DNA from: a virus
Taxonomy: Duplodnaviria; Caudoviricetes
Reading direction: 5' to 3' (one strand)
DNA length: 64,000 bases
Virus record (IMG/VR): IMGVR_UViG_3300010429_001449
In this document: positions 124-57,243 of the stretch, one piece after another
Layout: each line of letters starts with the position of its first letter
How positions within the stretch are numbered: position 1 is the stretch's first letter
Notes under the pieces: model-generated
Seen by the model: the letters and a program-made list of their open reading frames with translations, nothing else
What the model was told of the DNA's origin: nothing
Database searches by the model: none
Translations under genes and position numbers: made by a program

Positions 124-244
124 TAGCGGCTGGCCGGGATTCAGGGGACGAGCAATTCAGTTCTCGCCACGGGGTTTTGTACGTTCATTCATTAAACCCG
201 CTGCTCCCTGTCCCAACGCGCTTCTAAGCTTTCGCTCGCCGCTA
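124..244 (-). ncRNA. putative structured ncRNA co-transcribed with the Y-like RNA
   Basis: Closing stem UAGCGGC/GCCGCUA, GAGC-GAAA-GCUU hairpin, GUUGGGA/UCCCGGC and CAGGG/CCCUG stems, two distal hairpins; no ORF; between boxA and the Y-like RNA. Confidence 0.5.
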
Positions 245-277
245 CTTGCTCCACGCTGCAGCCGCATTCAATCTAGC

Positions 278-8036: not shown

Positions 8037-8163
8037 AGGTCATTCTCCTTTTCTTCGATGGAGTGATCGGGACAGAAGGCTTCACCGTCGTCTCCTATCC
8101 CCCGCAACGATGCCCGCTACCACGAAGACACCGACTACTACTGCTATGATTGTTCGAGCACGC

Positions 8164-8589
8164 TTACGACTCCTTTCTCGCACGGCGGACGAATCCGTAA
8201 GGGAGACACCCGAAACGAATGTCATCGTCGGTCTCGCCGCGCTTGAACGGCTCTTCTTTGCCGAAGATAGTCGTGATCGTGTAACCATCGGGAAGATGCT
8301 CGTACCATTCGCCGGGGAATAACCAGAGGACGTTTCCTTCCTCGTCGGGATCACGCCACCTACCCAGGCAAAGTTCTACCAACTCATCGTCGGTAGCGTT
8401 CTCGCGCAGCCTGTCGAGATCATCAGCGCTTCGCGGAACCCACTTGACGCGCCGCTGGTCGGGACGCTCGAACTGGGGCGTGATGATTTCGATCTTCTCA
8501 CCGGAGCCTGCGCCCAGAATGCGTTGAAGGGCGCTTGCAAGGTCTGCGCCGTCCAGCTTTTTCGGTTCAAACGACTTCTTCGCGGACAT
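8164..8589 (-). CDS. hypothetical protein
   Basis: Start MSAKK with GGAGG RBS. Confidence 0.7.
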   Translation of the reverse strand: MSAKKSFEPKKLDGADLASALQRILGAGSGEKIEIITPQFERPDQRRVKWVPRSADDLDRLRENATDDELVELCLGRWRDPDEEGNVLWLFPGEWYEHLPDGYTITTIFGKEEPFKRGETDDDIRFGCLPYGFVRRARKES

Positions 8590-10003: not shown

Positions 10004-10196
10004 GAAGTAACGCTTCAGTCGTAGCGCAGCCCAAGGGGGGATCGCACAGATGCGCGGCCAGAATTTCCGCGAACGCTTCCGCGAGATCAGGGTCCATCAC
10101 TTTTGATGACGTTTTCGCCGTACACCAGGCGCGGGCAGCTTCTTGGCGAGCAAACTCCATTCGACGTTCCTGTTCTGTTTTCGTAATCTCAGACAT
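9978..10196 (-). CDS. hypothetical protein
   Basis: ORF with RBS. Confidence 0.6.
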   Translation of the reverse strand: MSEITKTEQERRMEFARQEAARAWCTAKTSSKVMDPDLAEAFAEILAAHLCDPPLGCATTEALLRELHARVG

Positions 10197-10448
10197 TTCC
10201 TTTTCTCCTTATCTCAACAATCGCAGCGTCTATCGAAGACGACAACTTGCCTTTGTCGCCACGAACCGCCGCGCTGATTAGCGAGCGAATAGCCTCTCTC
10301 TTTTCCGGCGACCACGACGCCACGGCGCAGCTACAACACAAAACCTCAGCGTCGCCCGGCAACACATTCTCAAGACTTTTGCGCCCGCACTTGGAGCAAA
10401 CAATCCACTTCTTAGACATGAAAATCACCTTTCGGGCGCAATCCTTTA

Positions 10449-11300
10449 TCAAGCACCGGCAGCCCCTCCGACTTTTCGGTAACACGTCTTGCCGTCCGGC
10501 TGCTCCTGTTCTTCGAGATAGCCCATCACCACCGCCATCATAAACAGGCTTCGCGCTAAGTCGTCTGGAATATCCACATGCACTCGAATTCGAGCGAGGA
10601 CGACCGCGCTGGGCATCCATTCGTAAGGCAACGACCTTACAGCGGCGGCAAAAGCCCGCTTCGTAGCGTCGCTGAATTGAATGGGGCGATCATCCTTGTG
10701 CTGCTTGAACCAGTCGTCCGTGGGATAGTACGCGCAGAACGCCTTGTAACCACAAGTGCACGTAACGTCCCACGCAACACCTAACTCATGGAGTTCAGGC
10801 TCTCTGCCATCTATGATGACGAAGCCGCTGGTCTTGATTTCGACCTCCCGCGTCATCAGCATTTCGTAGATGTGGACGAGGTGGGCATCCCCGTAAGCAA
10901 GCCGCTCGCCACAGACCGGGCAGAAAGAGCCTATATGCGCGGTTGGCTTGATTGCAGAAACGTCAACGTCCGGGCGAAGCCTCGGAGCCTTGCGAGAATC
11001 CCACGCCTTTTGTGGAACGTCACCAAAGAAACCGCCGTGCGCATCGAGCCAGTCGTGCCATTCCTTCGGGGCTGGATAGGCAGTCGTTGCTTCGTAGCCG
11101 CAATCACACCAAACGTCCCAAACAGGGCCGCGCTTACCTATCTCCGGCAGAACGCTAAAATCAGGCAGACCGAAGTACGCAAGTATTTCGCACCCTCCGA
11201 CCATTAGCATGTCTACGATGTAGGCAGAGTCACTAGCATCTAAGTAGACCAACGGCTTGCCGCAGCGGGGGCAGTATGCGCCTTTTCGTTCTGTATTCAT
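10449..11300 (-). CDS. protein with two tandem Zn-ribbon-like repeats
   Basis: CPxCGxxLxYxDA...WDVxCxCGYxA occurs twice. Confidence 0.7.
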   Translation of the reverse strand: MNTERKGAYCPRCGKPLVYLDASDSAYIVDMLMVGGCEILAYFGLPDFSVLPEIGKRGPVWDVWCDCGYEATTAYPAPKEWHDWLDAHGGFFGDVPQKAWDSRKAPRLRPDVDVSAIKPTAHIGSFCPVCGERLAYGDAHLVHIYEMLMTREVEIKTSGFVIIDGREPELHELGVAWDVTCTCGYKAFCAYYPTDDWFKQHKDDRPIQFSDATKRAFAAAVRSLPYEWMPSAVVLARIRVHVDIPDDLARSLFMMAVVMGYLEEQEQPDGKTCYRKVGGAAGA

Positions 11301-11491
11301 TGTTTATCCCAAACGAGCACGTCCGCCTTGCCAGAGAAGACTAACCACGCCGCTTTGAGTCTTTTGATTAAGAAGAGACCGAGAAGACCGATGGGTCTTG
11401 CAGGTTTCCATACGCCGGGAGTCACTTCGCAAGCACAATCCCAGCTACGAATGCTTGACGCCGAAAACACAGAGGGAACCGGATTCATCAT
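11297..11491 (-). CDS. small hypothetical phage protein
   Basis: WxPARP...RLKAAWLVFSGKAD. Confidence 0.65.
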   Translation of the reverse strand: MMNPVPSVFSASSIRSWDCACEVTPGVWKPARPIGLLGLFLIKRLKAAWLVFSGKADVLVWDKQ

Positions 11492-11500
11492 TGCATCTCC

Positions 11501-12181
11501 TCAAACACGATCCGGGTGTTGTTCCCGAAACGTCTTGTCCCACGCTGCGGGATCGGAGAAGTAGTCAGAAACCTCGGCAGGCACGAGGCCGCTGTTATGG
11601 AGGCTGTCAATGTTCGCTAAGGAAAGAAGCTCGACGCCGTGCTCTTTGAGCGCCTTCTCGCCGCCCTGTTGACGATCAAAGACGACCATACAAAGCTTCA
11701 CCTCAGCGCCAGCTTCGCGGAGAGCTTCAATGAACTCCAGCTTGCTGCCCGCGTCTGTTATCAGGTCTTCGACCAGAACCACACGGCGGTCTTCGACCGA
11801 CGCGCCTTCGACCTTGCCCTTCGTACCGTATTCTTTCTGCGCCTTGCGGACGTAGGCCGAGGAGAGACCCATCGAAGCTGCGAGACGTGTGGCGAACGGT
11901 ATTCCTGCGCTCTCGCCGCCCGCGATGACGGGGAAAGGAGGCTTCTCCAGCAGGATGTATCCGCGCCTCGGCTCGTAGTCAAACTCAGCAAGGGCATAAT
12001 GAAAGAGACCCGTGACCAGACTCATAACAGCGGGATCGCTGATGAGTTTCCGGCAATCGAAGTAGACCGGACTCAGCAAGCCGCTCTTGAGCGTGAACGG
12101 TTTGATAGTGCTGATACGCAGGGCGTCGCAGCGTACCAATGCGTCTACAACAACATGTCCGACGGGAGAGTTCTTGTTCAT
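11501..12181 (-). CDS. pyrE: orotate phosphoribosyltransferase
   Basis: FTLKSGxxSPVYFDCR, YVRKxxKxYG, PRPP loop VVLVEDLITDAGSK. Confidence 0.92.
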   Translation of the reverse strand: MNKNSPVGHVVVDALVRCDALRISTIKPFTLKSGLLSPVYFDCRKLISDPAVMSLVTGLFHYALAEFDYEPRRGYILLEKPPFPVIAGGESAGIPFATRLAASMGLSSAYVRKAQKEYGTKGKVEGASVEDRRVVLVEDLITDAGSKLEFIEALREAGAEVKLCMVVFDRQQGGEKALKEHGVELLSLANIDSLHNSGLVPAEVSDYFSDPAAWDKTFREQHPDRV

Positions 12182-20097: not shown

Positions 20098-20132
20098 AAA
20101 AAGAAAGAGCGCACTGTTTCCAGTACGCTCTT
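20098..20132 (-). terminator. intrinsic terminator closing the tRNA/tmRNA operon
   Basis: AAGAGCGTACTG-GAAA-CAGTGCGCTCTT followed by TCTTTTT. Confidence 0.75.
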
Positions 20133-20507: not shown

Positions 20508-20583
20508 TGGTGGAGCCAGCGGGAGTTGAACCCGCGACCTCTAGTCTGCCGGACTAGCGCTCTCCCAACTGAGCTATGGCCCC
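20508..20583 (-). tRNA. tRNA-Ala(GGC)
   Basis: G3:U70, CTAGT-CCGGCAG-ACTAG (C33), encoded CCA. Confidence 0.9.
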
Positions 20584-20591
20584 ACAGCGTC

Positions 20592-20879
20592 CTACTTATT
20601 AGCGGCTTCCGCCGCTCGCCTGGCAGCACGGTCTTTTGCCGAGATGCCTTTGAACACGACGCCCGATACAGCAGCGCCGGATGCCTTGTGGACAGCCTTT
20701 ACGAGCGATGAGTCCACACGATTGTAAACACTATGCACTACGAAACCGGCCTTGTCAAGCTCTCCTGACAGCCTGGCCGTGCTAACGATTGCCGCGCACA
20801 GTTCGGTGAATTGTTCCTGCGACGTTTTCTGCGGAGCCATCTGAGGCGTCTCCGACCGGGCCTTCTTCGTCCTAGCCAT
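20592..20879 (-). CDS. small hypothetical protein
   Basis: MARTKK start with AAGGAG RBS. Confidence 0.6.
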   Translation of the reverse strand: MARTKKARSETPQMAPQKTSQEQFTELCAAIVSTARLSGELDKAGFVVHSVYNRVDSSLVKAVHKASGAAVSGVVFKGISAKDRAARRAAEAANK

Positions 20880-20959: not shown

Positions 20960-21035
20960 TGGTGGAGCCAGCGGGAGTTGAACCCGCGACCTCATCCATG
21001 CGAGGGATGCGCTCTCCCAACTGAGCTATGGCCCC
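20960..21035 (-). tRNA. tRNA-Ala(CGC)
   Basis: CATCC-CTCGCAT-GGATG, encoded CCA. Confidence 0.92.
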
Positions 21036-21226: not shown

Positions 21227-21361
21227 ATCGATCTCCTGCGCCGGAAAACCGGTGGTCGCGCTGTTATTTTCCGGAGACGGGCTAGAATGTGTTGTAATTT
21301 GGCTTGGCCGTTTCTTTGTTCACCCCGTCATAGCTATCTTAACAGCGCGACCAGAAAAAAA

Positions 21362-21436
21362 TGGAGCGGGCAGCGGGACTCGAACCCGCAATGAACAGCT
21401 TGGAAGGCTGTAGCCCTACCATTGGGCTATGCCCGC
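21362..21436 (-). tRNA. tRNA-Gly(TCC)
   Basis: ACAGC-CTTCCAA-GCTGT, encoded CCA. Confidence 0.92.
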
Positions 21437-21446
21437 GTTTTTGTTG

Positions 21447-21920
21447 CAGACGCCGCCGAGTCAGGACGGCGTCCGATCTTTTCCCGCACATGGCGGGTAA
21501 GTCTTGGGGGCCGGAACCGCCGAGACGGTCCTGCCGACTCCACCACCCTGTCAAACATCTCGGCGGACAGGGACGCCTGAGTAACGAGAGGCCGGTCAGT
21601 TCGAGACTGCATGCCGGTCGACTGACGCCTGACTGTGAGACGACTCTCGTGGCCTAGGCGCGAAAGTCGGCTCTGTGTCCCTTCCGCTGTCGCAGTGCCG
21701 TTGGGCGCTGTGGCAAACGCGGCCTCTCAAGAGCAAGGGCAATCTCTGCAGAGACGACCCTGCGCCCGTTCGCTTGTCGCTACTAGGGGGAGCAGATAGT
21801 TACACCGAGCCGGGCCGAGGCTGCGGGGGCAGCAGCGCCCGGCCTACAGGCTCAGTAAGCGTCGGCGAACCGACGCGAAATGGGGAGAAAAGCGGCTGGC
21901 ACATCCCCGCTTGCGCGGAG
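21447..21920 (-). ncRNA. large structured ncRNA of unknown class
   Basis: No credible ORF, nested helices, UUCG/GCAA tetraloops, 11-bp pseudoknot; inside stable-RNA operon. Confidence 0.55.
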
Positions 21921-21927
21921 AAAAGTG

Positions 21928-22007
21928 ATCGGGACGGCTGAGGAAGGCATAACCTCGCCGTCAATGGAGCGTCGGCCCATGACGTGTTGTGTGGCAGCCG
22001 TCCCGAT
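21928..22007 (-). ncRNA. small structured RNA
   Basis: 13-bp perfect closing stem ATCGGGACGGCTG/CAGCCGTCCCGAT directly after tmRNA CCA. Confidence 0.45.
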
Positions 22008-22012
22008 GTGAA

Positions 22013-22389
22013 TGGTGGACGCGGGGGGCATTGCAACCCCCGTCCAGAAATGGTTCCTTCTGCGCTTGCTACATGTTTAGCTGGCCTATTGTGTCTCGCG
22101 CTAAGAACCCCGGCCAGCGGGGTTTCCTTCGCGCCATCTCTAAAGCTTTAGCCCTTACGCCCAAGAGAACTGACGTAAGACCGATCCCGCTAGTTGACGC
22201 CTGCAAACAGACGCGGGCTTCCGCAAGCAGACGTGTTGCCTCTTGTTAGGCAGCAAGCCCAACCGCTTCGCGGCTGGGGAATTGCACGATGTTATCGGCA
22301 CTTGTGTTTTGTCAGGCGTTTTACGAGATTCCTGGCGATCTCGACATGCAACACAGACATCTTCCATCCTGTCGATTCTTGTCGCGCCC
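22013..22389 (-). ncRNA. ssrA: tmRNA, tag (A)ADNIVQFPSREAVGLAA*
   Basis: GGGCGCG/CGCGTCC-ACCA acceptor with G3:U70, 5' GAATCGAC motif, T arm, tag ORF 22246-22299 ending LAA-stop. Confidence 0.93.
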
Positions 22390-22589: not shown

Positions 22590-22611
22590 TACGTCAAACG
22601 ACTCTACACCT

Positions 22612-22639
22612 AGTATAACGGAGAGGAACAGAATGTCAA
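22612..22639 (-). promoter_or_regulatory. sigma70-type promoter
   Basis: TTGACA-16bp-TATACT. Confidence 0.85.
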
Positions 22640-24575: not shown

Positions 24576-24579
24576 TTTG

Positions 24580-24850
24580 CTTACAAAGACCGGCGCGGCA
24601 ACGCCGGTCTCCGTGGAAAGGATTCCAATGTCCAAACAGACGGCGGCGCGTTACAAAGCCACACGCCGTGGGCAAAACGTCATGCGCCGCCTCGAAAGAC
24701 GGCGCAGGTACTCCTTCCACACGTGGTGGATGAGCAAAGAGTTATAACGCACAGCAACCGTGTTGATCAAGCACGGCGGCACGTACTCTTGTGCGCCGGA
24801 ACTACCTCTCGACATTCGACTGCCGCCGGTACGCGCTTGTCGAGAGACGC
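24580..24850 (-). ncRNA. putative structured ncRNA
   Basis: Run of hairpins including a UUCG-capped one; no credible ORF; between tRNA genes. Confidence 0.4.
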
Positions 24851-24857
24851 TGTTGAC

Positions 24858-24934
24858 TGGTCGGGACAGTACGGAGTCGAACCGTTAATTTCCGAGCCTC
24901 GCGGTCGGCGTACTGCCGTTGTACTATCGTCCCG
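24858..24934 (-). ncRNA. atypical tRNA-like RNA (Pro-type acceptor, no canonical anticodon loop)
   Basis: CGGGACGA/CUGUCCCG-ACCA, D arm GUAC/GUAC, T loop UUCGACU, anticodon arm capped CC-GCGA-GG. Confidence 0.65.
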
Positions 24935-25228: not shown

Positions 25229-25256
25229 AGTATAACGGAGATACGCATAATGTCAA
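25229..25256 (-). promoter_or_regulatory. sigma70-type promoter
   Basis: TTGACA-16bp-TATACT. Confidence 0.85.
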
Positions 25257-28065: not shown

Positions 28066-29631
28066 TCAGGACGGAAAACCTCTGCTGACCCAATCGATAG
28101 CCTTCTTGGTGCGGGCCAACCGTTCTGCTTCTTGTCTAGCCAGGGCGAGAGCGTCGTCCCGCGAACGAATCGTTCCTTCTAGTTGCGCGTCCTGTACAGC
28201 CGTCAAGACCTCGCTGAATATTGGACTGGGCGAGAAGCCCATCGCAATAAGGTCGTGTCCGGTCAAGAGCGGTTTCGGCTTCACCTGTTCGGGAGGAAGC
28301 TCTTCTTTCTTGCGCCGGAGCCACTCGTAATCCGAAAGATCGCCGTTGCTTCCCACAGCATCGGCGCGATGAAGGGCCAGCAACCGGTCGAACAGAGGAT
28401 GCGCCATAATGCGCTTGAGCTTGGACAACTTCATGTCCTTGGCGTACGTCGGCACTAAGTGATGCTCAACAAGCCACTGGATAGCCTCAACATCAGCGTT
28501 GCTGAGCCTCATCCTCTTGCCAATCTCTCCTATCATCTCGGCCCCGACATCCTCATGTCTGTGGAACGTGATCCGCTGTTTGGCGTCGTTGAAGGCTTGT
28601 GTCTTAGGCTTGCCCACGTCGTGAAGGAGAGTAGCCCACGTCAAGACCAGATCGCCTTTAGGTTCCAGCTTATCCAGCATCAAAAGCGTGTGTTCCCATA
28701 CCGTACCTTCGGGGTGGAAGTCTTCCGGCTGCTCAATACCCTTCGTGGCGGCCATCTCGGGAAGCACTTTATCCAAAAGGTTCAAACCGTCGAGCAGCCG
28801 GAGTGCTTGCCCCGGATGTTGCGTTTGAAGCATCTTCCCTAACTCGTCGGTTATACGCTCTTGGCTGATGCCCGTGATCTTGTCCGCGTTGCTCTTTATG
28901 GCGTCGGCAGTCTTCTTGTCCATCTCGAAGCCGAAACGCGCCGCAAAACGGACGGCGCGGAGCATACGGAGATAATCCTCTGCAAATCGGTCATTAGGGT
29001 CGCCTACGGCGCGTAAGACGCCGTTTTCCAGGTCTTGTTGGCCTCCAACGTAGTCGATGACCTTCTTCTCTTTGGGGTCGAAAAACAAGGCGTTTATCGT
29101 GAAGTCGCGCCGCTCAGCGTCTTTTTCAGCGGTCGAGAAGCTCACTTCGTCCGGATGCCGTCCGTCCGCATATCCGCTTTCAGTCCGGAAGGTTGCGATT
29201 TCAAACTCGTCATCTCCATCTCGAACCCTTGACACGCCGAAGGCTTCCCCCGCAAACTTGGATTCGGGCCATATCTTGGAAACTTCGTCCGGCGTCGCGG
29301 AAGTTGCTATGTCTATGTCGTGACAGTCACGACCGAGAAGCATGTCTCGCACACAGCCGCCCGCAAAATAGGCTTCATGCCCGGCGTCCTTCAAACGCTC
29401 AACAATGTTCGTGGCGGCTTTGCCTTGCTGGGAATCGAGAACCGCCGCCCAAGCATCTTCTTTGATCTTCTTCTCGGGCTTCTTTTCTTCTTCTCCTTCA
29501 GCGGCTCCGGCGGCAGAAGTAAACTGCCCGGTTTCAGGGTCTTTGCATCTGCTGCCTGGTTTACCGGGAGCGATTTGACACGGCTTGTCGTCGGCTTTCC
29601 TGAATGCTGTTTGTATCCAATCATAGGGCAT
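28066..29631 (-). CDS. cca: CCA-adding tRNA nucleotidyltransferase with HD domain and YDW leader
   Basis: AGGCVRD, DIDIAT, RRDFTINA, EDYLRMLRAVRF, QERI, LLHDVGKP. Confidence 0.92.
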   Translation of the reverse strand: MPYDWIQTAFRKADDKPCQIAPGKPGSRCKDPETGQFTSAAGAAEGEEEKKPEKKIKEDAWAAVLDSQQGKAATNIVERLKDAGHEAYFAGGCVRDMLLGRDCHDIDIATSATPDEVSKIWPESKFAGEAFGVSRVRDGDDEFEIATFRTESGYADGRHPDEVSFSTAEKDAERRDFTINALFFDPKEKKVIDYVGGQQDLENGVLRAVGDPNDRFAEDYLRMLRAVRFAARFGFEMDKKTADAIKSNADKITGISQERITDELGKMLQTQHPGQALRLLDGLNLLDKVLPEMAATKGIEQPEDFHPEGTVWEHTLLMLDKLEPKGDLVLTWATLLHDVGKPKTQAFNDAKQRITFHRHEDVGAEMIGEIGKRMRLSNADVEAIQWLVEHHLVPTYAKDMKLSKLKRIMAHPLFDRLLALHRADAVGSNGDLSDYEWLRRKKEELPPEQVKPKPLLTGHDLIAMGFSPSPIFSEVLTAVQDAQLEGTIRSRDDALALARQEAERLARTKKAIDWVSRGFPS

Positions 29632-29646
29632 ACACAAACATCTCCA

Positions 29647-31518
29647 TCAATAAAGATCGAACACGCCTTCTTGAACCAGGCGGCGCAGGCGGCTGACACG
29701 CTCGTCGATCTCGTTCCCATAAAACCCGTGCCGCAACAGAGTACGACGGAACGCGCTGACGTTCACGTTTTTCAGCTTCTCGTACACATCGTCAGCAATA
29801 GGTTGCTGGTGCAGGGGATAACCGAAACTTGTTGCTCGGAACGTCCCGTAGTACATACCGCCATTGTCGATAGCAACGACTCGTCCCTTTTCCGTCAACA
29901 TAATATTGCCGCCGTGTCGATCCGCGTTCAACATAATCGCATCCAGCGCTAATATTCTGTGCAGCCAACCACTATCTTCGCTATCCAAAAACGCATTCGT
30001 GCTGACCGCTGGCATCGCATCAGCGATATCAAAGTTATCGGGGAACCCAAGACGATTAACGTCCGTCTGCAAAGAGACGCCTTGGAATGACCCATGCTTA
30101 TGCGCAAATTCGCCGCCCAAATTGGCGGTAGGAGGCACTATATTGAAGCCCAGGACTTGATCGATGTCGTAAGCAGCCTCCTCAGCGTATGCCGTTCCGT
30201 GCTGCGCATTGAGTTTGCACAGCGCTCGGCTACCGTCTGCTGTAGTGAGCCAGAACGTAGTGTTTATACCGCCGCTTTCGCTTAATTCCTCTCGATCACC
30301 GGGTTCCGCCTCCGCGAGCGCGGCTTCGAGAATAGCCTTGTTAGCGGGTGATCCCAGCGGAATGTCGTCGGGAGTGCTTGCGCTAATGCGCCCAATGGTC
30401 TCTCGCGTTTGTGCCGCGCTCTCCAGTTGCTGCTCGGTTGCAAGAGTTAAGTCGTCTCCTTCAGAGGCGATCTTGTGATCGAGCACAGCGGCAAGAGCAG
30501 TAACGCCCAAGAGGACTAATGATTTCCCACGGCGCAACCCTCTAATGAACATCTCAGTCTCTTCTGCGATGATCTGGGAATCTCCGTCAGGAGCGTACTT
30601 GGCAAGCCATCCACTCACGTCCTTCTTGTAGCTTTCAACCTCAGAGTCGTCGGCAATAAGCGCGTCAGTCCGCTCCTCCACAGCGAACATACCAAACAAC
30701 TCCTTCACAACAGCCGCCTCGATACGATACTCATGCGCTATATTCTGTATGCGCCCCGCCTGCGCGGAACCGCCGGTCTTGGCAAGATTAATCGCCCATA
30801 GCGTAGAATAAGGCGTTCCCTTATAGGTCAACCCACCAACCACAGCGCTCGCTATCTGCTCGTAGATTTGAATGTCAGCCGGACCTACATAACCTTGAGT
30901 ATAGTTGTACGACGCCTTGACCGAGGCTACCGAAATACCATTCTGAAGACACTCTTCGTTGTATTCATCAGCCGCTTGCTTTAGGGCATCGCGCTCAGCG
31001 GCAGGAACAGCGCCGGTCTTGTCCAACGCTGCCGAGAAGAACTCTGAAATAATCTCATCCTTACTAAGATTACCGGCTCTAACGCGATCAAGAAGATTTT
31101 GGTAAGCTGGGGTGTGATAAAGCTCGTCCTGAGACCAGTGAAACACGCGCCCTATTCCCATGCCGTCGTAGACACTATCTAACACCGCATGAACACCGGC
31201 AGTATCGCCGGGGCGCAATGCACCAAGGGCGTTAATCTTGTCAGACGCAGCCTTGTAAACGCTCTCCCCTAAAGCGCTTGATTCCACGCCGTAACCTTGA
31301 TCGCGCCTCCGGGATATCTCGCGTTCCTTGGTGGAGGACTTCCTTTCTTCGCTCCTGTGCTGTGACGCCTCCGCTCCTTGCGCAGTACCTGCTCTGCCCG
31401 CCGACGTAAACTCACCCGTAGCAGGATCGTGACAACGATTCCCCACTCTGCCGGAGCCGCGACTGCACTCGCTCTGCTCCTGCTTCTCCAGCGCGTACTT
31501 GATCCAATCGTAGATCAC
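29647..31518 (-). CDS. YDW-leader protein with C-terminal PI3/4-kinase/HipA-like kinase domain
   Basis: GGIN, K, EEAAY..D..LG...VPPT, NADRHGGN, AIDNG. Confidence 0.8.
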   Translation of the reverse strand: MIYDWIKYALEKQEQSECSRGSGRVGNRCHDPATGEFTSAGRAGTAQGAEASQHRSEERKSSTKEREISRRRDQGYGVESSALGESVYKAASDKINALGALRPGDTAGVHAVLDSVYDGMGIGRVFHWSQDELYHTPAYQNLLDRVRAGNLSKDEIISEFFSAALDKTGAVPAAERDALKQAADEYNEECLQNGISVASVKASYNYTQGYVGPADIQIYEQIASAVVGGLTYKGTPYSTLWAINLAKTGGSAQAGRIQNIAHEYRIEAAVVKELFGMFAVEERTDALIADDSEVESYKKDVSGWLAKYAPDGDSQIIAEETEMFIRGLRRGKSLVLLGVTALAAVLDHKIASEGDDLTLATEQQLESAAQTRETIGRISASTPDDIPLGSPANKAILEAALAEAEPGDREELSESGGINTTFWLTTADGSRALCKLNAQHGTAYAEEAAYDIDQVLGFNIVPPTANLGGEFAHKHGSFQGVSLQTDVNRLGFPDNFDIADAMPAVSTNAFLDSEDSGWLHRILALDAIMLNADRHGGNIMLTEKGRVVAIDNGGMYYGTFRATSFGYPLHQQPIADDVYEKLKNVNVSAFRRTLLRHGFYGNEIDERVSRLRRLVQEGVFDLY

Positions 31519-50357: not shown

Positions 50358-50603
50358 TTAATCCGATCCGGCAGACAATGCCTTGCCCGCCCAGTCTACA
50401 CGAGACGAACGCTTAGGAGAAACAGCCTCGAAGAATTCGCTCGACGCAACATCAGACGCAACCAAGTTGCCTTTATCATCAAAACGCACGCGGCGTACTT
50501 TGCGATCAGGACGAACGCGAGAAACAACAGACGCCAGTTTCCTTTCGACGATAGCCAAGTCGCTAAAATCCGTCGGTTGAAATCCCTTTCGTCGTTCCGT
50601 CAT
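50358..50603 (-). CDS. small hypothetical protein with C-terminal DW..AL motif
   Basis: Coupled ORF ending RVDWAGKALS. Confidence 0.6.
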   Translation of the reverse strand: MTERRKGFQPTDFSDLAIVERKLASVVSRVRPDRKVRRVRFDDKGNLVASDVASSEFFEAVSPKRSSRVDWAGKALSAGSD

Positions 50604-53065
50604 CGCTTACTCCGTTTCTCTTTATAAGAGTCAAAAACATCTTTGCTGTCGCCGGAAAGATCGAACGTCCCGAACCAACGCGCCCCCAACATGGCCGCCT
50701 TCCCAAAACGCCTGTATTTCACGGCGTCTTCCAAAACATCGTCCGACATGTTTCGCTTTTTTTTGAAAACGTCGCGTATAACACCGTCAAATTCAGGAGG
50801 CAGGTCGAAACAGAATGTGGCGTGATCAAACGCCGTGATTCCGACGCTAGAGTCATACTTGTAAGAGTCAAGCAATTCCTCGTGACGATCATCATCAATA
50901 AGACCGGCGCGAAGCGCTTTGTCTAAAACCGTCTCGAACATCTCGGTAATTCTGTACTCGTTGTCTTCGCGGTCTGAGTCAGACTCGAAATCAACACCCA
51001 TAAGCGCCCAAGCATATCCGCCAACAGATTTATTGGCTTCCAATCTCATGTGCCCCACGCCCGCCTGAGACGCTAAGGAGATAGCCCTTTCAAACAAATT
51101 CATGCCTATGCCCTGCCCCTGCTTGGACGCAATAACATCCATGAACCGCAAGTGCAAGCTGTCCTGCTGAAAAGCCATCTCAAATCTCGCGGCCTCTGAC
51201 CCGGAAGAATCAGACAAAGCAACCTCGAAAACGACACCCTCCCCTTCCTCGAACCAGTATTGAGTCACATCTGTATCATAGCCTTCCACCTTGAACAGCG
51301 ATGGCAGCGCGTCTCTATTAGGAACATGAGGATAATCTTCGGCGTAGCGTTGAGCCTCATCCTCACTTTCAGTCTCTTCGAGATAGTAGGAATACGCATC
51401 CATCCAGATATTCTCAGGCGGAGTATCCTCTGCGGGAACGGCTTGTTCTTCAGCCTCCGGTTCTTCATCAACAGCTTCTTCCGCCTCATAGTCCTCGCCA
51501 AGAATGTCTTTGATATCAACGGGATAAATCTCCACGTCGGAAGCATCTATGGTCACGTCGGGACGTTTGCGCCAAGAATAGCCGCCGCCCGTTTCGTAGA
51601 CAGACGCGGGAATGTCCACAGAAAAGGCCCGCTTGCCGTCGTGAACAAAGAGATAGGCGTGATCGTCGCCCTCCTGTCCGCCTTCCACAACCTCAAAACC
51701 CAACTCGGAAAGAATTCCGCTCATCGCGTTGGCTACCGCGTCGCAAATGCCCCCGCCACCATAGTCGTCGAATTCGTCATCAGGACTCCAGTCGTCATAG
51801 ACGCGCTGCGCGGCCTCGGCAAGACGGGATTTCTGGTCGTTTAGATACGACTTCAAGTCCTTATCCCCCAGCCTGCGTATGTCCGGAGGCTTCTCCTCCT
51901 GCGCCCGTTGTTCTTCCATAAAGCCGAATTCGCGCTGACCCGGCTTGGCGGCTTGGGCTGCGTCCGCCACAGAATCGATAGCAGCCCCAGTAGTCACCTG
52001 CCATTCGTCGTGCTTTTTAGAACGAGTACCATAAGCTCCGTCTTTTGGTGTAACACGCACTAAAGATATATTGCGCGGATCAACAGACGCCGTGGCCGTT
52101 GCATCACCGTAGAAACTCGGGTGCTCCCGCCCTCCAGCGCCCTCACGCCCAAGCGTCCACCTATTCATAAAATCCTTGCGGTCGGAGTAAACCCTATCAA
52201 GAGAAGGATTGCGCCACTCATGGTAACGTCTGTCAGCCCCCGATCCTTCTCCAGATGACTCTACCGGAATCCAATCAGACGAAACCTCCCCGCGCTTTTT
52301 TGGTGATGTCCATTCCGTAGCGTAACCATCAATTAATGCCTGCATCGCCTCCGGGATAGGTTTCCCCGGCGACCATCTCCTGTCATTCAGAACAAAAGAA
52401 GACAGAAACGGCTGTTTAGCACCCTTCCCATCAGCGGCGTCTTGGATTAATTGAGCAATGCTGTAGTCGCCCCGCAACACCCCTACATAAAGACGCACGT
52501 CGTCAAGAATGCCTAATGCCGTTTCCCTATTATCAGTAAGACTGACGCGGTTCGTATGACCGCCCAAGCCAGCGCCGCTGTGTCCAACCTCACCGCGCTT
52601 GAATCCTAACTCTTCGTTAGTGCGTAAGCCTTCGCGGAGTACTGCCGGAAGATTAGTCGTAACATGGTATAAAGTTTCGGGGAGAGGAGACCAATCCGCA
52701 GAGTGACTGTAACCAAGGTCTCTAGCCTTGTCGGGCGTTAAATCGCCCACAGACAAGGCGTACTCCACAGCATCGATCCACTCACCCATCTTTTCTTCAT
52801 TCTGAGGATCACGTGCGTAATCGCTAAGAGATTGTGACCATATTTCCTTACGGCGCGTGCCCTCCTGCGATTCGCGGTGCGCACGCGATTCCTCGTCCTT
52901 CTTCGGGGGGACAGCGTGCTCGGCGTCGGTTGTACGACCGCGCTCGTCTCGACAATGCGTTCCCGGACCCGATCCTTCGCCAAAACCACAGGGCGCGGGT
53001 TCCTTCTTGCCTTCCTCTTCGGAGGCTTTGGCGAGGGCGTAACCGAGCCAGTCATACGCCTTCAT
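50600..53065 (-). CDS. YDW-leader polyvalent protein (ART-like and GNAT-like domains)
   Basis: LYHVT...LREGL...VSLT...EW (ADP-ribosyltransferase-like); QGQGIG...EAN..VGGYAWA (GNAT-like). Confidence 0.7.
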   Translation of the reverse strand: MKAYDWLGYALAKASEEEGKKEPAPCGFGEGSGPGTHCRDERGRTTDAEHAVPPKKDEESRAHRESQEGTRRKEIWSQSLSDYARDPQNEEKMGEWIDAVEYALSVGDLTPDKARDLGYSHSADWSPLPETLYHVTTNLPAVLREGLRTNEELGFKRGEVGHSGAGLGGHTNRVSLTDNRETALGILDDVRLYVGVLRGDYSIAQLIQDAADGKGAKQPFLSSFVLNDRRWSPGKPIPEAMQALIDGYATEWTSPKKRGEVSSDWIPVESSGEGSGADRRYHEWRNPSLDRVYSDRKDFMNRWTLGREGAGGREHPSFYGDATATASVDPRNISLVRVTPKDGAYGTRSKKHDEWQVTTGAAIDSVADAAQAAKPGQREFGFMEEQRAQEEKPPDIRRLGDKDLKSYLNDQKSRLAEAAQRVYDDWSPDDEFDDYGGGGICDAVANAMSGILSELGFEVVEGGQEGDDHAYLFVHDGKRAFSVDIPASVYETGGGYSWRKRPDVTIDASDVEIYPVDIKDILGEDYEAEEAVDEEPEAEEQAVPAEDTPPENIWMDAYSYYLEETESEDEAQRYAEDYPHVPNRDALPSLFKVEGYDTDVTQYWFEEGEGVVFEVALSDSSGSEAARFEMAFQQDSLHLRFMDVIASKQGQGIGMNLFERAISLASQAGVGHMRLEANKSVGGYAWALMGVDFESDSDREDNEYRITEMFETVLDKALRAGLIDDDRHEELLDSYKYDSSVGITAFDHATFCFDLPPEFDGVIRDVFKKKRNMSDDVLEDAVKYRRFGKAAMLGARWFGTFDLSGDSKDVFDSYKEKRSKR

Positions 53066-53391
53066 TGAACCGACCCCTCCTCCGGCTGCGCCGTGTATTC
53101 GGGGTCTTCTACATAAAAACGCCACTCGAAGCCTTTGTCGCGGCAGAAGGCAAAGACAGCCTGTTTAACGCCCTCCCAGTAATGCTCGACGCTTTTGGGA
53201 GTGATGCCTCCGACAATCGCAACGCCATACGAATTCTCGAAAATGGCCGCCTCGAACTCCTTAAGGTACGGACCTAAATACGGACCCCACAACCGAACCT
53301 TCTTGAGCGTCCATGACGACGGATTATCCCAGTCGCCAGCTACTGCCGCGACTACACGCTCGCCGTGCATGATGGCTATGAGATATTCCAC
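53062..53391 (-). CDS. hypothetical protein
   Basis: Coupled between two YDW genes. Confidence 0.65.
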   Translation of the reverse strand: MEYLIAIMHGERVVAAVAGDWDNPSSWTLKKVRLWGPYLGPYLKEFEAAIFENSYGVAIVGGITPKSVEHYWEGVKQAVFAFCRDKGFEWRFYVEDPEYTAQPEEGSVQ

Positions 53392-55764
53392 CTAAAGACC
53401 TCTGCAAACAGCCCAAGCGTGCATCAAATGCTCCGGGTCATCTCGCAACAGTTTATTGAACCATCGATCCGAAAACAATGCCGCAACACCCATCGAGATC
53501 ACTTCGTGAAACGGCATACTAGGATTTTCGGAATAGTAACGACCTACGTAACCGTCCGCAAAACGATCTCTGTAAGCGACCTCGCCCTCCGGATAACCTT
53601 CGAGTTGCGTCGGATTCTGTTCAGCCGTCCCCACAACGCGCTGCCACGCCCACTCATTGAGACGGGCGTGAACAGCGCTGTTGCGAAAGCCGATGTGGTG
53701 CGCAAACTCGTGCGCAACCGTCTCTTGACTGGAATCGCCAGTCAACAGGATACTGTTCGCTTCGGCACAAGCCGACGCTCGACGCGCTTCCCGCGTGAAG
53801 TTCCATTCTATAGAAGCCAGAGCGGGATCAGCCAAGAGATTCGGATTCAGAACGGACAAAACATCGTCAACACCCTCCGACCAAGGACCGGTCAAATAGT
53901 CAGGAGCGCCCGGCATCGTAAGAATGCCTTCGTTGGCGAAAGTACGTATCTGATCGCGCTTCTCGGAAGGCGTATCGGCAAGATCGCGCAATGTCTGAAG
54001 CATTAAATTCCTGCCGCCGCGATCCAGACGCTCCTTCGTAAGACCGAGCATCGCGGCGTCCCTGTTGGCGGCGTCCAGAGCGTCTTTGGATTTGGTGGCG
54101 GGGGAATAGGATAAGGTCTTCAAGTAAGCAACGACAGGCTTCTGCGCTTCCCGTAATGCCGCGCTAATGCTCTCCAAGCGATTGTTGTAATCGAACCGCG
54201 CCGCGTTCCGACGATTGAGCGCCTCTTCGTGACGAGCGCTAAGCTCTCTGAATTCGGTCGTCAAAGCAGCCTCTTGGCGCACGAGATCGGCGCGGGACGG
54301 ATCATCTGCGCCAAGACTCGACAGCCTCTCCCTCGCGTACAACAATTCGGCATTTTTGGCAAAAGTGTCGCTACCCAGTTCGGAGGCGACGTGCATTGCG
54401 GCATTCCAAGCGTCGTTCGCCGCCGGAAGCGACGCCTCAAGCTCGGCAACCGCACGCAGCTTGGAAGAAGACATGCGCGGAGGAGTCCGTCGCCAGTTTT
54501 TCACGATCTTGAGAGCGTCGGAAGAAATAAGACGCCGCGCCTCCTTGAAATCAGAAACGGAAGCAAGCAGTTGTATGTCGTTATCAGTCTTGAAGACGCG
54601 CCATTGACCGTCTTTAACAGTATACTCAGCACGATAGGAAACGATGCCTCCGCCATTCAACACGTCGCGGAAATAAACGCTCATATCACCGTCAGAATAG
54701 GCGTTTACGCCGCCACGATCAATCATCAATTGCCAATCGGGCTTCTTCTCCCCCTGAGAATAGGAACGAGAAGCGGCTACCGCCGCATCCTGCGCGGAGT
54801 ATTCGTCGTCAAACGACTCGCCGGTCTCGGCGTCAAAGTAAGCCTCGAAGTGCCCGAACGGATTTTTGAAGATATAACTCTTGCGGGCCGTAACAACATA
54901 CTTGTCCGAAATCGAGTGAATGCCAAAACTTACATCCGGCTTGGACAAACGGTCTTCCCGCTCGGAACTGACTACCTCATCCGCATCCCAGATGCGCCCG
55001 TATTGAAGCAAGTTCGCCCTCGCCACATCGCGGTCGAGCTTGCGCGAATCCTCCACCACCTCCTCTTCCTCTTCCTCAACATCTGCCTCCGGCAACTGCT
55101 CGGTCGAAGAAACCTCTTCGGCGGCGGATACGTCTATCTCTGGAGCAGAAAGAAGATCGTCGCGCCCAGCCAAGGAGAGCCACCGCTCGTAGTCCTTTAT
55201 CTGGTCGTCCGTGTAACCTAACAGACGAGAAAACTGGGGCGTGCCATATGCACCGCCACGCTCCAAGTAACGAACAAGAGGCGCAGCATCCTCCTCGTTT
55301 TGCGCAAAAATGCCTACGCCGCGCACGTTGGTCACGTACAGACCCGCCGCCTGCGCCGCTGTGTAATCCGCGCCCCCGCTCGATTCCACGCCAACCTTGA
55401 ACTTGCCGTCAATAATGTCCTGCAATCGGTGAATATTGTCGTCAAGCTTGCGGTGAAGCTCGGCCTTCTCGCGCTGACGCTCCTCCTCAGACATGTCCGA
55501 AACAGCCTCGCGCTCTTCCTCCCTGCGCTTTGCGCGTGCGCGTTCGTCAAAACGACGCTGACGCTCACGGTTCTGAGCGGACTCTTTGTCCTGCTTAGGA
55601 TCAACGTGGCCGCCAATGTCGGTCGTCTCCCCCTCCTCGTCCCGACACCACGTTCCGGGGCCGCCGCCCTTCCCGTGGCCACAGTTCCTATCCGACGATT
55701 CCGATTCGGACTCGGAATCGCTCTCCTTCTTGGAGAGAGCTATAGCCAGCCAGTCGTAAGGCAC
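53392..55764 (-). CDS. YDW-leader protein with C-terminal zincin-like HExxH domain
   Basis: TVAHEFAHH...YVGRYY...EVISMG. Confidence 0.75.
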   Translation of the reverse strand: MPYDWLAIALSKKESDSESESESSDRNCGHGKGGGPGTWCRDEEGETTDIGGHVDPKQDKESAQNRERQRRFDERARAKRREEEREAVSDMSEEERQREKAELHRKLDDNIHRLQDIIDGKFKVGVESSGGADYTAAQAAGLYVTNVRGVGIFAQNEEDAAPLVRYLERGGAYGTPQFSRLLGYTDDQIKDYERWLSLAGRDDLLSAPEIDVSAAEEVSSTEQLPEADVEEEEEEVVEDSRKLDRDVARANLLQYGRIWDADEVVSSEREDRLSKPDVSFGIHSISDKYVVTARKSYIFKNPFGHFEAYFDAETGESFDDEYSAQDAAVAASRSYSQGEKKPDWQLMIDRGGVNAYSDGDMSVYFRDVLNGGGIVSYRAEYTVKDGQWRVFKTDNDIQLLASVSDFKEARRLISSDALKIVKNWRRTPPRMSSSKLRAVAELEASLPAANDAWNAAMHVASELGSDTFAKNAELLYARERLSSLGADDPSRADLVRQEAALTTEFRELSARHEEALNRRNAARFDYNNRLESISAALREAQKPVVAYLKTLSYSPATKSKDALDAANRDAAMLGLTKERLDRGGRNLMLQTLRDLADTPSEKRDQIRTFANEGILTMPGAPDYLTGPWSEGVDDVLSVLNPNLLADPALASIEWNFTREARRASACAEANSILLTGDSSQETVAHEFAHHIGFRNSAVHARLNEWAWQRVVGTAEQNPTQLEGYPEGEVAYRDRFADGYVGRYYSENPSMPFHEVISMGVAALFSDRWFNKLLRDDPEHLMHAWAVCRGL

Positions 55765-55980: not shown

Positions 55981-57138
55981 CTACCGCCGCTGCCTACGCG
56001 CCGCGATGATATTAATCTGATTGCGAAGACCAGGCAATAAACTCTCCGCATGACGAAACAACGTGTCCTCTTTGGAGCCGCGAGGCGCACGCCGTTTCAG
56101 CGCTTCCATCGATGCAATAAGACTGTCCGCGTCCTCGGAAGACACATCATCCCATACATAAGGATCGCTCAACTGCCGCACCTTGTAATTAACATCCGCC
56201 ATAGAGTCCTGCCCGCGCAGCCGTTCCAGCGTGTAATAACCTCTGGCCCGAAGCGACTCTGCGCCGCTTCCCGGTGTCGCCCACGGAGCAAGCTCTTCAA
56301 GCGATTGCTCCAACTTGCTGCTCTCAGCCTCCGCAAGAATATCCGGCAACGGATCGAGTTCCGAAAGCAGGCCGGACAGATGCGACAACACGCCATCGAC
56401 GCGAGTCATCGTCTCTTCTCGACGACGCTCATCCTCCGGCAACGCCTCAAGATAAGCTCTCCTCTCAGCGGCGCGTCTCTCGACCCTGGCAGCAGCCTCC
56501 TGTCTCAGGGCGCTCGCCCTCTCGGTGCGTTCGCGCTCCGCACGACGATCAGATTCAAGCTTCGCTTCTCTCGCGGCAGCCCGTTTTTTCGCGCCCGCCA
56601 ACTCGGAGAGAACATTCTCGCCACGCCTCACCCAGTCAGACTCGACACTTCCGGATTCAACATGAGGCTTAAGCGTGTTAATGGCGGCCCTCAAAACAGG
56701 CTCCCAATCGTCTGAAAGCACGTCGCCATGCTCGTAAGACTGCGTGTAAGCCTGCACATCCGACAAGGCGTCGTTCCACGCTTCGGCATCCGGCGGACTC
56801 GGCGGCTCTTCAACTTCCGGAGCAGCCTCCGGCGCGGCTTCCGGAGCAGCCTCCGGCGCGGCTTCCGACTCAAGCTCCTCCAACTGCTGCCGCGCCGACT
56901 GAGCAATATCCGGATCGTCAGAATTGACCAACGATGACAAGTGCTTCCTTCGATCCGATTCAGTTATCCCTTCGCGCCACTCCAAGCCGTGCTGCCCTAT
57001 CCTGAAATCGTAATCGTCGCTGCGGGCAAAAGTCCCGTCCGCATAACGATACGGATTCGCCTTCTCAGTAACTTCCGTAGCCTCGGAATCATCATCCAAC
57101 TGAGACCGCAAACCCTTTAACACCCAGTCGTAAGGCAT
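55981..57138 (-). CDS. YDW-leader helical protein
   Basis: MPYDWVLKGL...EKANPYRYADGTFA, (AAPE)n linker. Confidence 0.75.
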   Translation of the reverse strand: MPYDWVLKGLRSQLDDDSEATEVTEKANPYRYADGTFARSDDYDFRIGQHGLEWREGITESDRRKHLSSLVNSDDPDIAQSARQQLEELESEAAPEAAPEAAPEAAPEVEEPPSPPDAEAWNDALSDVQAYTQSYEHGDVLSDDWEPVLRAAINTLKPHVESGSVESDWVRRGENVLSELAGAKKRAAAREAKLESDRRAERERTERASALRQEAAARVERRAAERRAYLEALPEDERRREETMTRVDGVLSHLSGLLSELDPLPDILAEAESSKLEQSLEELAPWATPGSGAESLRARGYYTLERLRGQDSMADVNYKVRQLSDPYVWDDVSSEDADSLIASMEALKRRAPRGSKEDTLFRHAESLLPGLRNQINIIAARRQRR

Positions 57139-57243
57139 TCTCGTCCTCTCCGCAAGAATCAACCGACCACGATTCAGCCATACCAACCAATGTAACCGAC
57201 CACACCCACCAACGCAAGCAACAACCTTTTCGCGGAATTTGCC

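Follow-up and report, generated by a model that had tools for sequence, protein, structure and literature searches.

Between the tmRNA and tRNA-Gly(UCC) genes of an uncultured jumbo phage lies a stretch of ~470 nt, which raises the questions of whether it encodes an RNA and, if so, of what kind. A sequence-only reading of the 64,000-nt stretch of DNA that was analysed (hereafter the window) had placed there, on the minus strand, an ornate non-coding RNA of ~470 nt with an 11-bp pseudoknot, belonging either to a class such as GOLLD and ROOL or to a new one. The location between the two genes was confirmed, and the putative product is referred to below as the orphan RNA.

Operon context and non-coding character

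The phage has a genome of ~269 kb, and its proteins are on record on contigs of up to 269,027 bp (JGI 3300009776, ENA ERZ795054 and Logan SRR5007146) from samples that, going by the sample identifier, presumably originated in anaerobic digesters. The region of the orphan RNA was identical in the three assemblies compared, which thus provided no strain variation. The minus strand of the window carries 13 tRNA genes and one tmRNA gene, as well as a Ro60-type protein (505–2277) and a CCA-adding enzyme (28066–29631), whose neighbours loosely hint at a host in Planctomycetota, Verrucomicrobiota, Acidobacteriota or Hydrogenedentota. As a separate observation, a YDW-type N-terminal leader was found on unrelated proteins of this strand (28066–29631, 29647–31518, 50600–53125, 53392–55764 and 55981–57186) and is also kept in a kinase-like protein of a related phage.

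The operon reads, from 5′ to 3′, promoter, tRNA-Ala(UGC), tRNA-Met, tmRNA, an 80-nt stem-loop, the orphan RNA, tRNA-Gly(UCC), a 100-nt stem-closed RNA, a 66-aa ORF, tRNA-Ala(CGC), a 95-aa ORF, tRNA-Ala(GGC), tRNA-Gly(GCC) and a terminator-like site at 20132–20105 (Table 1). It includes all four alanine acceptors of the window, and its remainder consists of densely packed RNA genes. The only terminator-like match from the main promoter to the orphan RNA was weak and internal to the tmRNA, from which we infer co-transcription with the operon; a second, weaker promoter-like match lies at 20758. The orphan RNA would then be released by processing of the flanking tmRNA and tRNA-Gly, the latter probably generating its 3′ end. 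Several further features were observed on this strand. Three near-identical promoters with a 16-nt spacer occur at 25256–25229, 22639–22612 and 20092–20065, the first two each preceding a word that we take to be boxA-like and then an RNA operon. The ~100-nt RNA directly after tRNA-Gly(UCC) (21250–21353) has a 14-bp closing stem and an A/C-rich interior, and the segment 19800–20273, which spans tRNA-Gly(GCC), the terminator and the next promoter, gave a folding z of −7.0 (12 shuffles only).

That the stretch is non-coding was upheld. A codon model trained on the phage's own genes was negative in all six frames (−0.10 to −0.17, versus +0.13 for genes), a convincing ribosome-binding site preceded none of the six short ORFs examined, so that neither hallmark of a protein-coding gene was found, and the gap had been left empty by the gene callers in three assemblies. 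Its GC content (65.4%, versus 55.2% for the whole window) exceeded those of the tmRNA and of all 24 control windows; at ~10 points over the genome and far over the promoter region (46%), it resembles that of RNA genes. Two computations of the folding z yielded −3.03 and −2.7, compared with −2.65 for the adjacent tmRNA. Values of −3.0 or lower were also obtained for 4 of the 24 control windows, and the opposite strand folds equally well (z −3.4). The signal is concentrated in 21803–21876 (z −5.2), while the 3′ domain alone reached −1.3. The folding energy is accordingly suggestive, not exceptional.

Table 1. Features of the orphan RNA and its operon; structural parts are predicted
Feature	Position	Strand	Remarks
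Operon promoter, sigma70-type	22612–22639	−	−35/−10, 16-nt spacer, 11/12 match; also in the related phage (L016)
boxA-like word (our assignment), 3′ of promoter	near 22590–22578	−	word also kept in L016
tmRNA, upstream neighbour	22013–22389	−	138.4 bits; alanine acceptor, encoded CCA
Separate 80-nt RNA	21928–22007	−	perfect 13-bp closing stem, z −4.0
Orphan non-coding RNA	21447–21920	−	~430–470 nt
GCAA-tetraloop hairpin	21905–21920	−	alternative long-range pairing with 21497–21483
UUCG hairpin, 7 bp	21859–21876	−	pair probability 0.99
Long irregular GC hairpin	21803–21857	−	probability 0.94–0.99; with UUCG hairpin the strongest signal
Hairpin with 12-nt palindromic tip	21736–21761	−	predicted fold
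3′ domain	21533–21671	−	closed by 9-bp helix 21671–21663/21541–21533
Inner helices of 3′ domain	21660–21656/21578–21574; 21650–21644/21590–21584; 21572–21566/21552–21546	−	
11-bp crossing helix	21566–21556/21527–21517	−	duplex −20.4 kcal/mol
Arm complementary to tRNA-Ala(GGC/CGC)	21529–21545	−	covers tRNA nt 76 to 60
6 nt complementary to tRNA-Ala nt 1–6	21507–21512	−	
Two terminal hairpins	21447–21497	−	5 bp with 5-nt loop; 8-nt purine linker; 11 bp
tRNA-Gly(UCC), downstream neighbour	21362–21436	−	
tRNA-Ala(CGC), candidate partner of arm	20960–21035	−	same operon
tRNA-Ala(GGC), candidate partner of arm	20508–20583	−	3′ 25 nt same as CGC gene

Family assignment and the related phage

Searches against Rfam, with gathering thresholds as well as E-value cut-offs, returned no match at E ≤ 10 (801 bases) and none at E ≤ 2 (5.7 kb); the sole hit within 21447–21920, of 12 bits to a human lncRNA model, was taken as chance. 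GOLLD (RF02032) and ROOL (RF03087) are large, helix-rich non-coding RNAs of phage tRNA arrays (Kretsch et al. 2025, PMC12286853). The orphan RNA shares the location of GOLLD in such an array, but its proposed membership of this group was not supported, as neither model matched and the GOLLD motifs listed in the supplement of PMC12286853 required 4–5 mismatches. Nor can a new class be established, since no homolog was found.

The absence of RNase P, SRP and intron signatures, previously judged by eye, held up under the model and motif searches. On the minus strand, the best CR-I and CR-V matches of RNase P RNA carried 4 mismatches, and the helix 8 motif of SRP RNA had no match within 5 mismatches. 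The group I intron core (P3–P7, G site, R/S) was not found and the neighbouring tmRNA and tRNA-Gly are intact; the domain 5 triad and 5′ GUGYG start of group II introns and HYER elements were likewise absent or matched only with several mismatches, as were the T-loop, CCA acceptor stem, tag frame and Y-RNA handle of tmRNA-like, tRNA-like and YrlA RNAs. Scattered look-alike words would allow for a ribozyme that serves the tRNA array and has diverged strongly from RNase P RNA, a group I intron or the group II/HYER type, and RNase P RNA also possesses a tRNA-end-binding GGU. Such a ribozyme is nevertheless highly improbable, given core motifs that need 3–5 mismatches and occur in the wrong order, the empty Rfam result at E ≤ 10, and the absence of a flanking interrupted gene.

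Homologs were sought with several approaches. Searches with blastn of phages and plasmids yielded chance matches only, and matches from pattern scans of IMG/VR and GTDB were judged chance on inspection. A DNA search of 401 + 301 genomes from two phyla recovered nothing but the ends of tmRNAs and short, GC-rich stretches that matched by chance, and single-sequence covariance models of both halves, run on the related phage and on five large phage genomes, gave no homolog either. This related phage (L013/L016; CCA enzyme 73% identical) was the sole relative retrieved by protein search, and a JGI metagenome scan with a neighbouring protein as the query returned the same contig. Relatives of the LMW phosphatase were rejected as related phages, as their contigs were non-syntenic and cellular-looking.

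The tRNA array, promoter and tmRNA of L013/L016 are syntenic with those of the studied phage, and the L016 contig stops 950 nt past its tmRNA. An element sharing its first ten bases with 22004–21995 follows 3′ of that tmRNA, and then a row of 90–200-nt stem-closed or tRNA-like RNAs continues up to the contig end; by alignment and covariance model, none of those in the available sequence matches the orphan RNA. Its counterpart in the relative may thus lie further along, be missing or be unrecognisable, and the relative shows that the position after the tmRNA is used for RNA genes. The unannotated tRNA-like or stem-closed RNAs of the L016 operon were located at 10047–10158, 10245–10412, 11148–11234 and 11239–11350, with others of the same row at 11357–11510, 11512–11600 and 11604–11741; two of them have terminal strands in common with window positions 126–271. 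A 205-nt stem-closed RNA after the tmRNA (L016 10800–11004) has the same 5′ start as the 80-nt RNA of the window. Both phages also have unusual tmRNA T-loops (window 22013–22050, minus strand; L016 10760–10795) and tmRNA tags with a similar IVQFP-type N-terminal part and an LAA end, a pattern that matched no genome in GTDB.

Another uncatalogued RNA, of ~220–280 nt, was observed at 24576–24857 (minus strand) between a tRNA-Ser-like gene and tRNA-Pro(UGG). Conservation in L016 is strong (8083–8358; alignment score 177, with shuffles at 21), some of the changes appear compensatory, and inspection by eye suggested several crossing helices; no Rfam family matched, and two pattern scans gave no further member. 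This RNA is a better candidate for covariation work than 21447–21920. Paralogy of the two RNAs was considered because model R1 hit 24681–24917 (23 bits, versus a background of ≤14) and was set aside as a weak lead: the alignment was not significant (46 of 300 shuffles), and R1 did not hit the L016 orthologue. The terminal hairpins of the orphan RNA are weakly similar to 24734–24685.

These results bear on whether the locus is functional at all. A non-functional or decaying spacer, derived from a lost gene or from scrambled RNA-gene pieces, would be compatible with the lack of a homolog in the collections searched and in the sequence available for the related phage, with a z of just −1.3 for the 3′ half, and with the opposite strand folding at −3.4. 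It is quite unlikely, however, as no frame retains a coding trace, the GC content resembles that of RNA genes, and such genes fill the remaining operon with little space between them. We consider it probable that the stretch is a maintained RNA, whether single or compound; it is probably a real, uncatalogued large non-coding RNA within a jumbo-phage tRNA operon.

Predicted structure and its possible readings

All 13 helix strands quoted in the sequence-only reading are present, including those of the terminal hairpin 21475–21447. The nested fold that they compose is near-optimal (−214.7 versus −219.1 kcal/mol, a gap of 4.4), and the folding z is similar to that of the tmRNA. However, the pair probability of several inner helices is low (0.39 in one example), so the description as an ornate fold stands only in part; according to the predictions, just the 5′ hairpins and the terminal hairpin appear well determined. 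The two ends of the RNA are predicted to pair with probability 0.84–0.93. The 9-bp helix that closes the 3′ domain also appears in an unconstrained fold of the 3′ half and contains two G-U pairs adjoining an unpaired UGGU (see below), while the internal arrangement of the domain is ambiguous.

The length of ~470 nt was likewise retained in part. The GC-rich non-coding stretch extends over it, but the 5′ boundary may be either 21920 or ~21876, as 21900–21892 is identical to the 3′ strand in a family of small RNAs, with a pyrimidine linker after it. The separate 80-nt RNA upstream, overlooked before, has a 5′ strand that can alternatively pair with 21903–21893. The 474 nt might also comprise two or three smaller RNAs arranged in a chain, for example a small decayed unit ending at ~21890, the hairpin pair 21876–21803 and a 3′ unit of 225 nt. 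Such a chain would fit the patchy folding signal and the row of RNAs after the L016 tmRNA, and the family to which 21900–21892 conforms is found at window 126–271 and twice in L016. Nonetheless, 21876–21447 lacks an internal CCA, T-loop or U-rich linker, and the two ends are predicted to pair with high probability; we regard the chain as unlikely.

Both strands of the 11-bp helix are present and complementary, as claimed, but stems of at least 11 bp occurred in 37 of 200 shuffles (18%). With a 13-nt loop and a 3-nt return linker, full formation of an 11-bp helix in cis is unlikely on geometric grounds, and the crossing helix may instead represent a partial pseudoknot, an alternative fold, or an intermolecular or trans contact. 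The palindromic tip at 21736–21761 is a possible dimerisation site.

In line with this, the whole could be a single self-assembling scaffold or cage of the GOLLD and ROOL kind, in which the crossing helix, the palindromic tip and the exchangeable end hairpins would act as contacts between copies, and in which the tRNA-complementary arm described below would be incidental or an inverted tRNA-Ala remnant serving as an ordinary helix strand. Size and setting fit GOLLD and ROOL, the long loop pairing is difficult in cis, and a covarying pseudoknot of GOLLD proved to be an intermolecular bridge, as palindromic loops also are (PMC12286853). On the other hand, the orphan RNA has no sequence or model similarity to either RNA, its repeats and long stems do not exceed what shuffled sequences give, and no homolog was found. 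We regard this scaffold as possible, at clearly less than even chances.

Complementarity to co-encoded alanine tRNAs

A feature absent from the earlier reading is the arm at 21545–21529, which is complementary to the 17 3′-terminal bases of tRNA-Ala(GGC/CGC) at 16 positions, with 13 contiguous pairs (two of them G-U), one mismatch and three further pairs. Its start, UGGU (21545–21542), opposite ACCA, is unpaired between two helices of the nested fold, and from there the complementarity extends along the 3′ strand of the helix that encloses the domain. With the other alanine acceptors of the operon, the arm forms fewer pairs (8 for tRNA-Ala(UGC), 7 for the tmRNA). When tested against all 14 tRNA and tmRNA ends of the window, its anchored complementarity score of 13.5, for a match found post hoc, was attained in 0.065% of 20,000 dinucleotide-shuffled sequences (p = 0.0007). 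It is the top site on the entire 64-kb minus strand; the next two, at 12.5, are coding sites attributed to chance, for which ~0.015 are expected per 474 nt. The word UGG occurs twice in the 474 nt, both times in the arm, versus 6.4 expected (p = 0.02). The complementarity to co-encoded alanine tRNAs is above chance.

The hybrid of arm and tRNA-Ala was computed at −28.6 kcal/mol, versus −13.2 for the cis helix that it would displace. Co-folding with the whole RNA gained −6.4 to −8.3 kcal/mol for the three tRNA-Ala and 0 to −4.0 for the other ten tRNAs, with the freed tRNA 5′ strand pairing with 21512–21507; this gain was not significant, as an equal gain with some tRNA arose for 37% of 3′ domains after shuffling. 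No such arm was found in the available sequence of the related phage (best score 9). A host tmRNA or tRNA was also considered as a perfect target of the arm, but only 13 stretches in GTDB carry the exactly complementary 3′ end, and most of them are atypical tRNAs or tRNA-like RNAs of enlarged size. Among the latter, three RNAs from Patescibacteria and Planctomycetota MAGs (L282, L287 and L288), whose 3′ ends are perfect complements of the arm, comprise an acceptor stem and T arm around a 100–130-nt insert and had been missed by ARAGORN.

Taken together, the complementarity hints at a grip on alanine tRNAs, without proof. We tentatively propose, as a possibility rather than the expected outcome, that the 3′ domain clamps alanine tRNA by means of a toehold. 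In this model, the unpaired UGGU would dock on the free ACCA of an uncharged or damaged tRNA-Ala, whose 3′ strand would displace the weak, G-U-ended cis helix to give a 13–16-bp duplex, and 21512–21507 would capture the tRNA 5′ strand once freed. The tRNA-Ala or its 3′ halves would thereby be sequestered or sheltered while the 3′ domain refolds, and the clamp would form one part of a phage tRNA-maintenance kit. Consistent with it are the non-coding nature, high GC content and tmRNA-like z, the operon context, and the encoded CCA-adding enzyme and Ro60 protein; against it stand the post hoc nature of the match and the lack of a homolog for either fold or arm. In its fullest form, that of a strand-invading recogniser of one tRNA species that docks on the ACCA, opens the acceptor stem and retains the two strands of tRNA-Ala, the proposal is unlikely, about as much so as the chain of small RNAs. 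If true, the RNA would sense or shelter tRNA that is uncharged or has been cut by a nuclease, or serve as a platform for its repair, through a recognition mode for which the literature searched contained no description in a bacterial or phage RNA.

The same bases admit another origin. Read on the plus strand, 21506–21545 resembles the acceptor hairpin of an alanine tRNA in collapsed form, which is what an inverted fragment should look like. The sequence is therefore accounted for just as well by an inverted piece left over from a neighbouring tRNA-Ala gene, and the mismatches of the arm are transitions, which a decaying inverted copy would also give. Such a remnant within a GOLLD-like scaffold is about as likely as capture of tRNA-Ala by the clamp.

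For the clamp, the precedent for a toehold is the UGGN:NCCA sensing of T-boxes (RF00230; PMC7778990). Like the T-box discriminator, the orphan RNA has an UGGN directly after AGGG that is unpaired in the nested fold, in which U fits A73 of tRNA-Ala and which is predicted to sense a free CCA end. Unlike it, the pairing extends 13–17 nt into the acceptor and T stems, whereas the T-box stops at 4, and neither a match to RF00230 or to Stem I and the specifier, nor the antiterminator bulge consensus (5 of 14 positions mismatched), nor a regulated protein gene downstream was found. Long pairing to tRNA 3′ ends has its precedent in the 18-nt primer-binding sites of retroviruses (PMC4052509), which the arm resembles in running ~17 nt from UGG, complementary to tRNA nt 60–76, and from which it differs in its bacterial phage context and imperfect match. 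No reverse transcriptase was present among the ORFs examined, a minor part of the 269-kb genome.

Stable non-tRNA RNAs of phage tRNA clusters are exemplified by species 1 and 2 of phage T4. The orphan RNA would similarly be an unassigned product of a phage tRNA polycistron, presumably released by processing; it is, in contrast, 3–4 times longer and itself lacks a T-arm, an acceptor stem and a CCA. With GOLLD and ROOL, it shares the wealth of helices, the phage tRNA array, the candidate long loop pairings and the palindromic tip, but it is shorter (430–470 nt, versus ~580 and ~800) and has neither a model or motif match to them nor homologs found. The function of GOLLD and ROOL is unknown, and proposals that connect them with tRNA storage or protection have so far been speculative (PMC12286853, PMC12990946). 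The orphan RNA adds a further uncatalogued case, in which toehold and arm match tRNAs of its own operon. If the binding is not real, it is another orphan structured RNA in an unusually RNA-rich phage; if it is, large RNAs of this type would be tied directly to tRNA handling.
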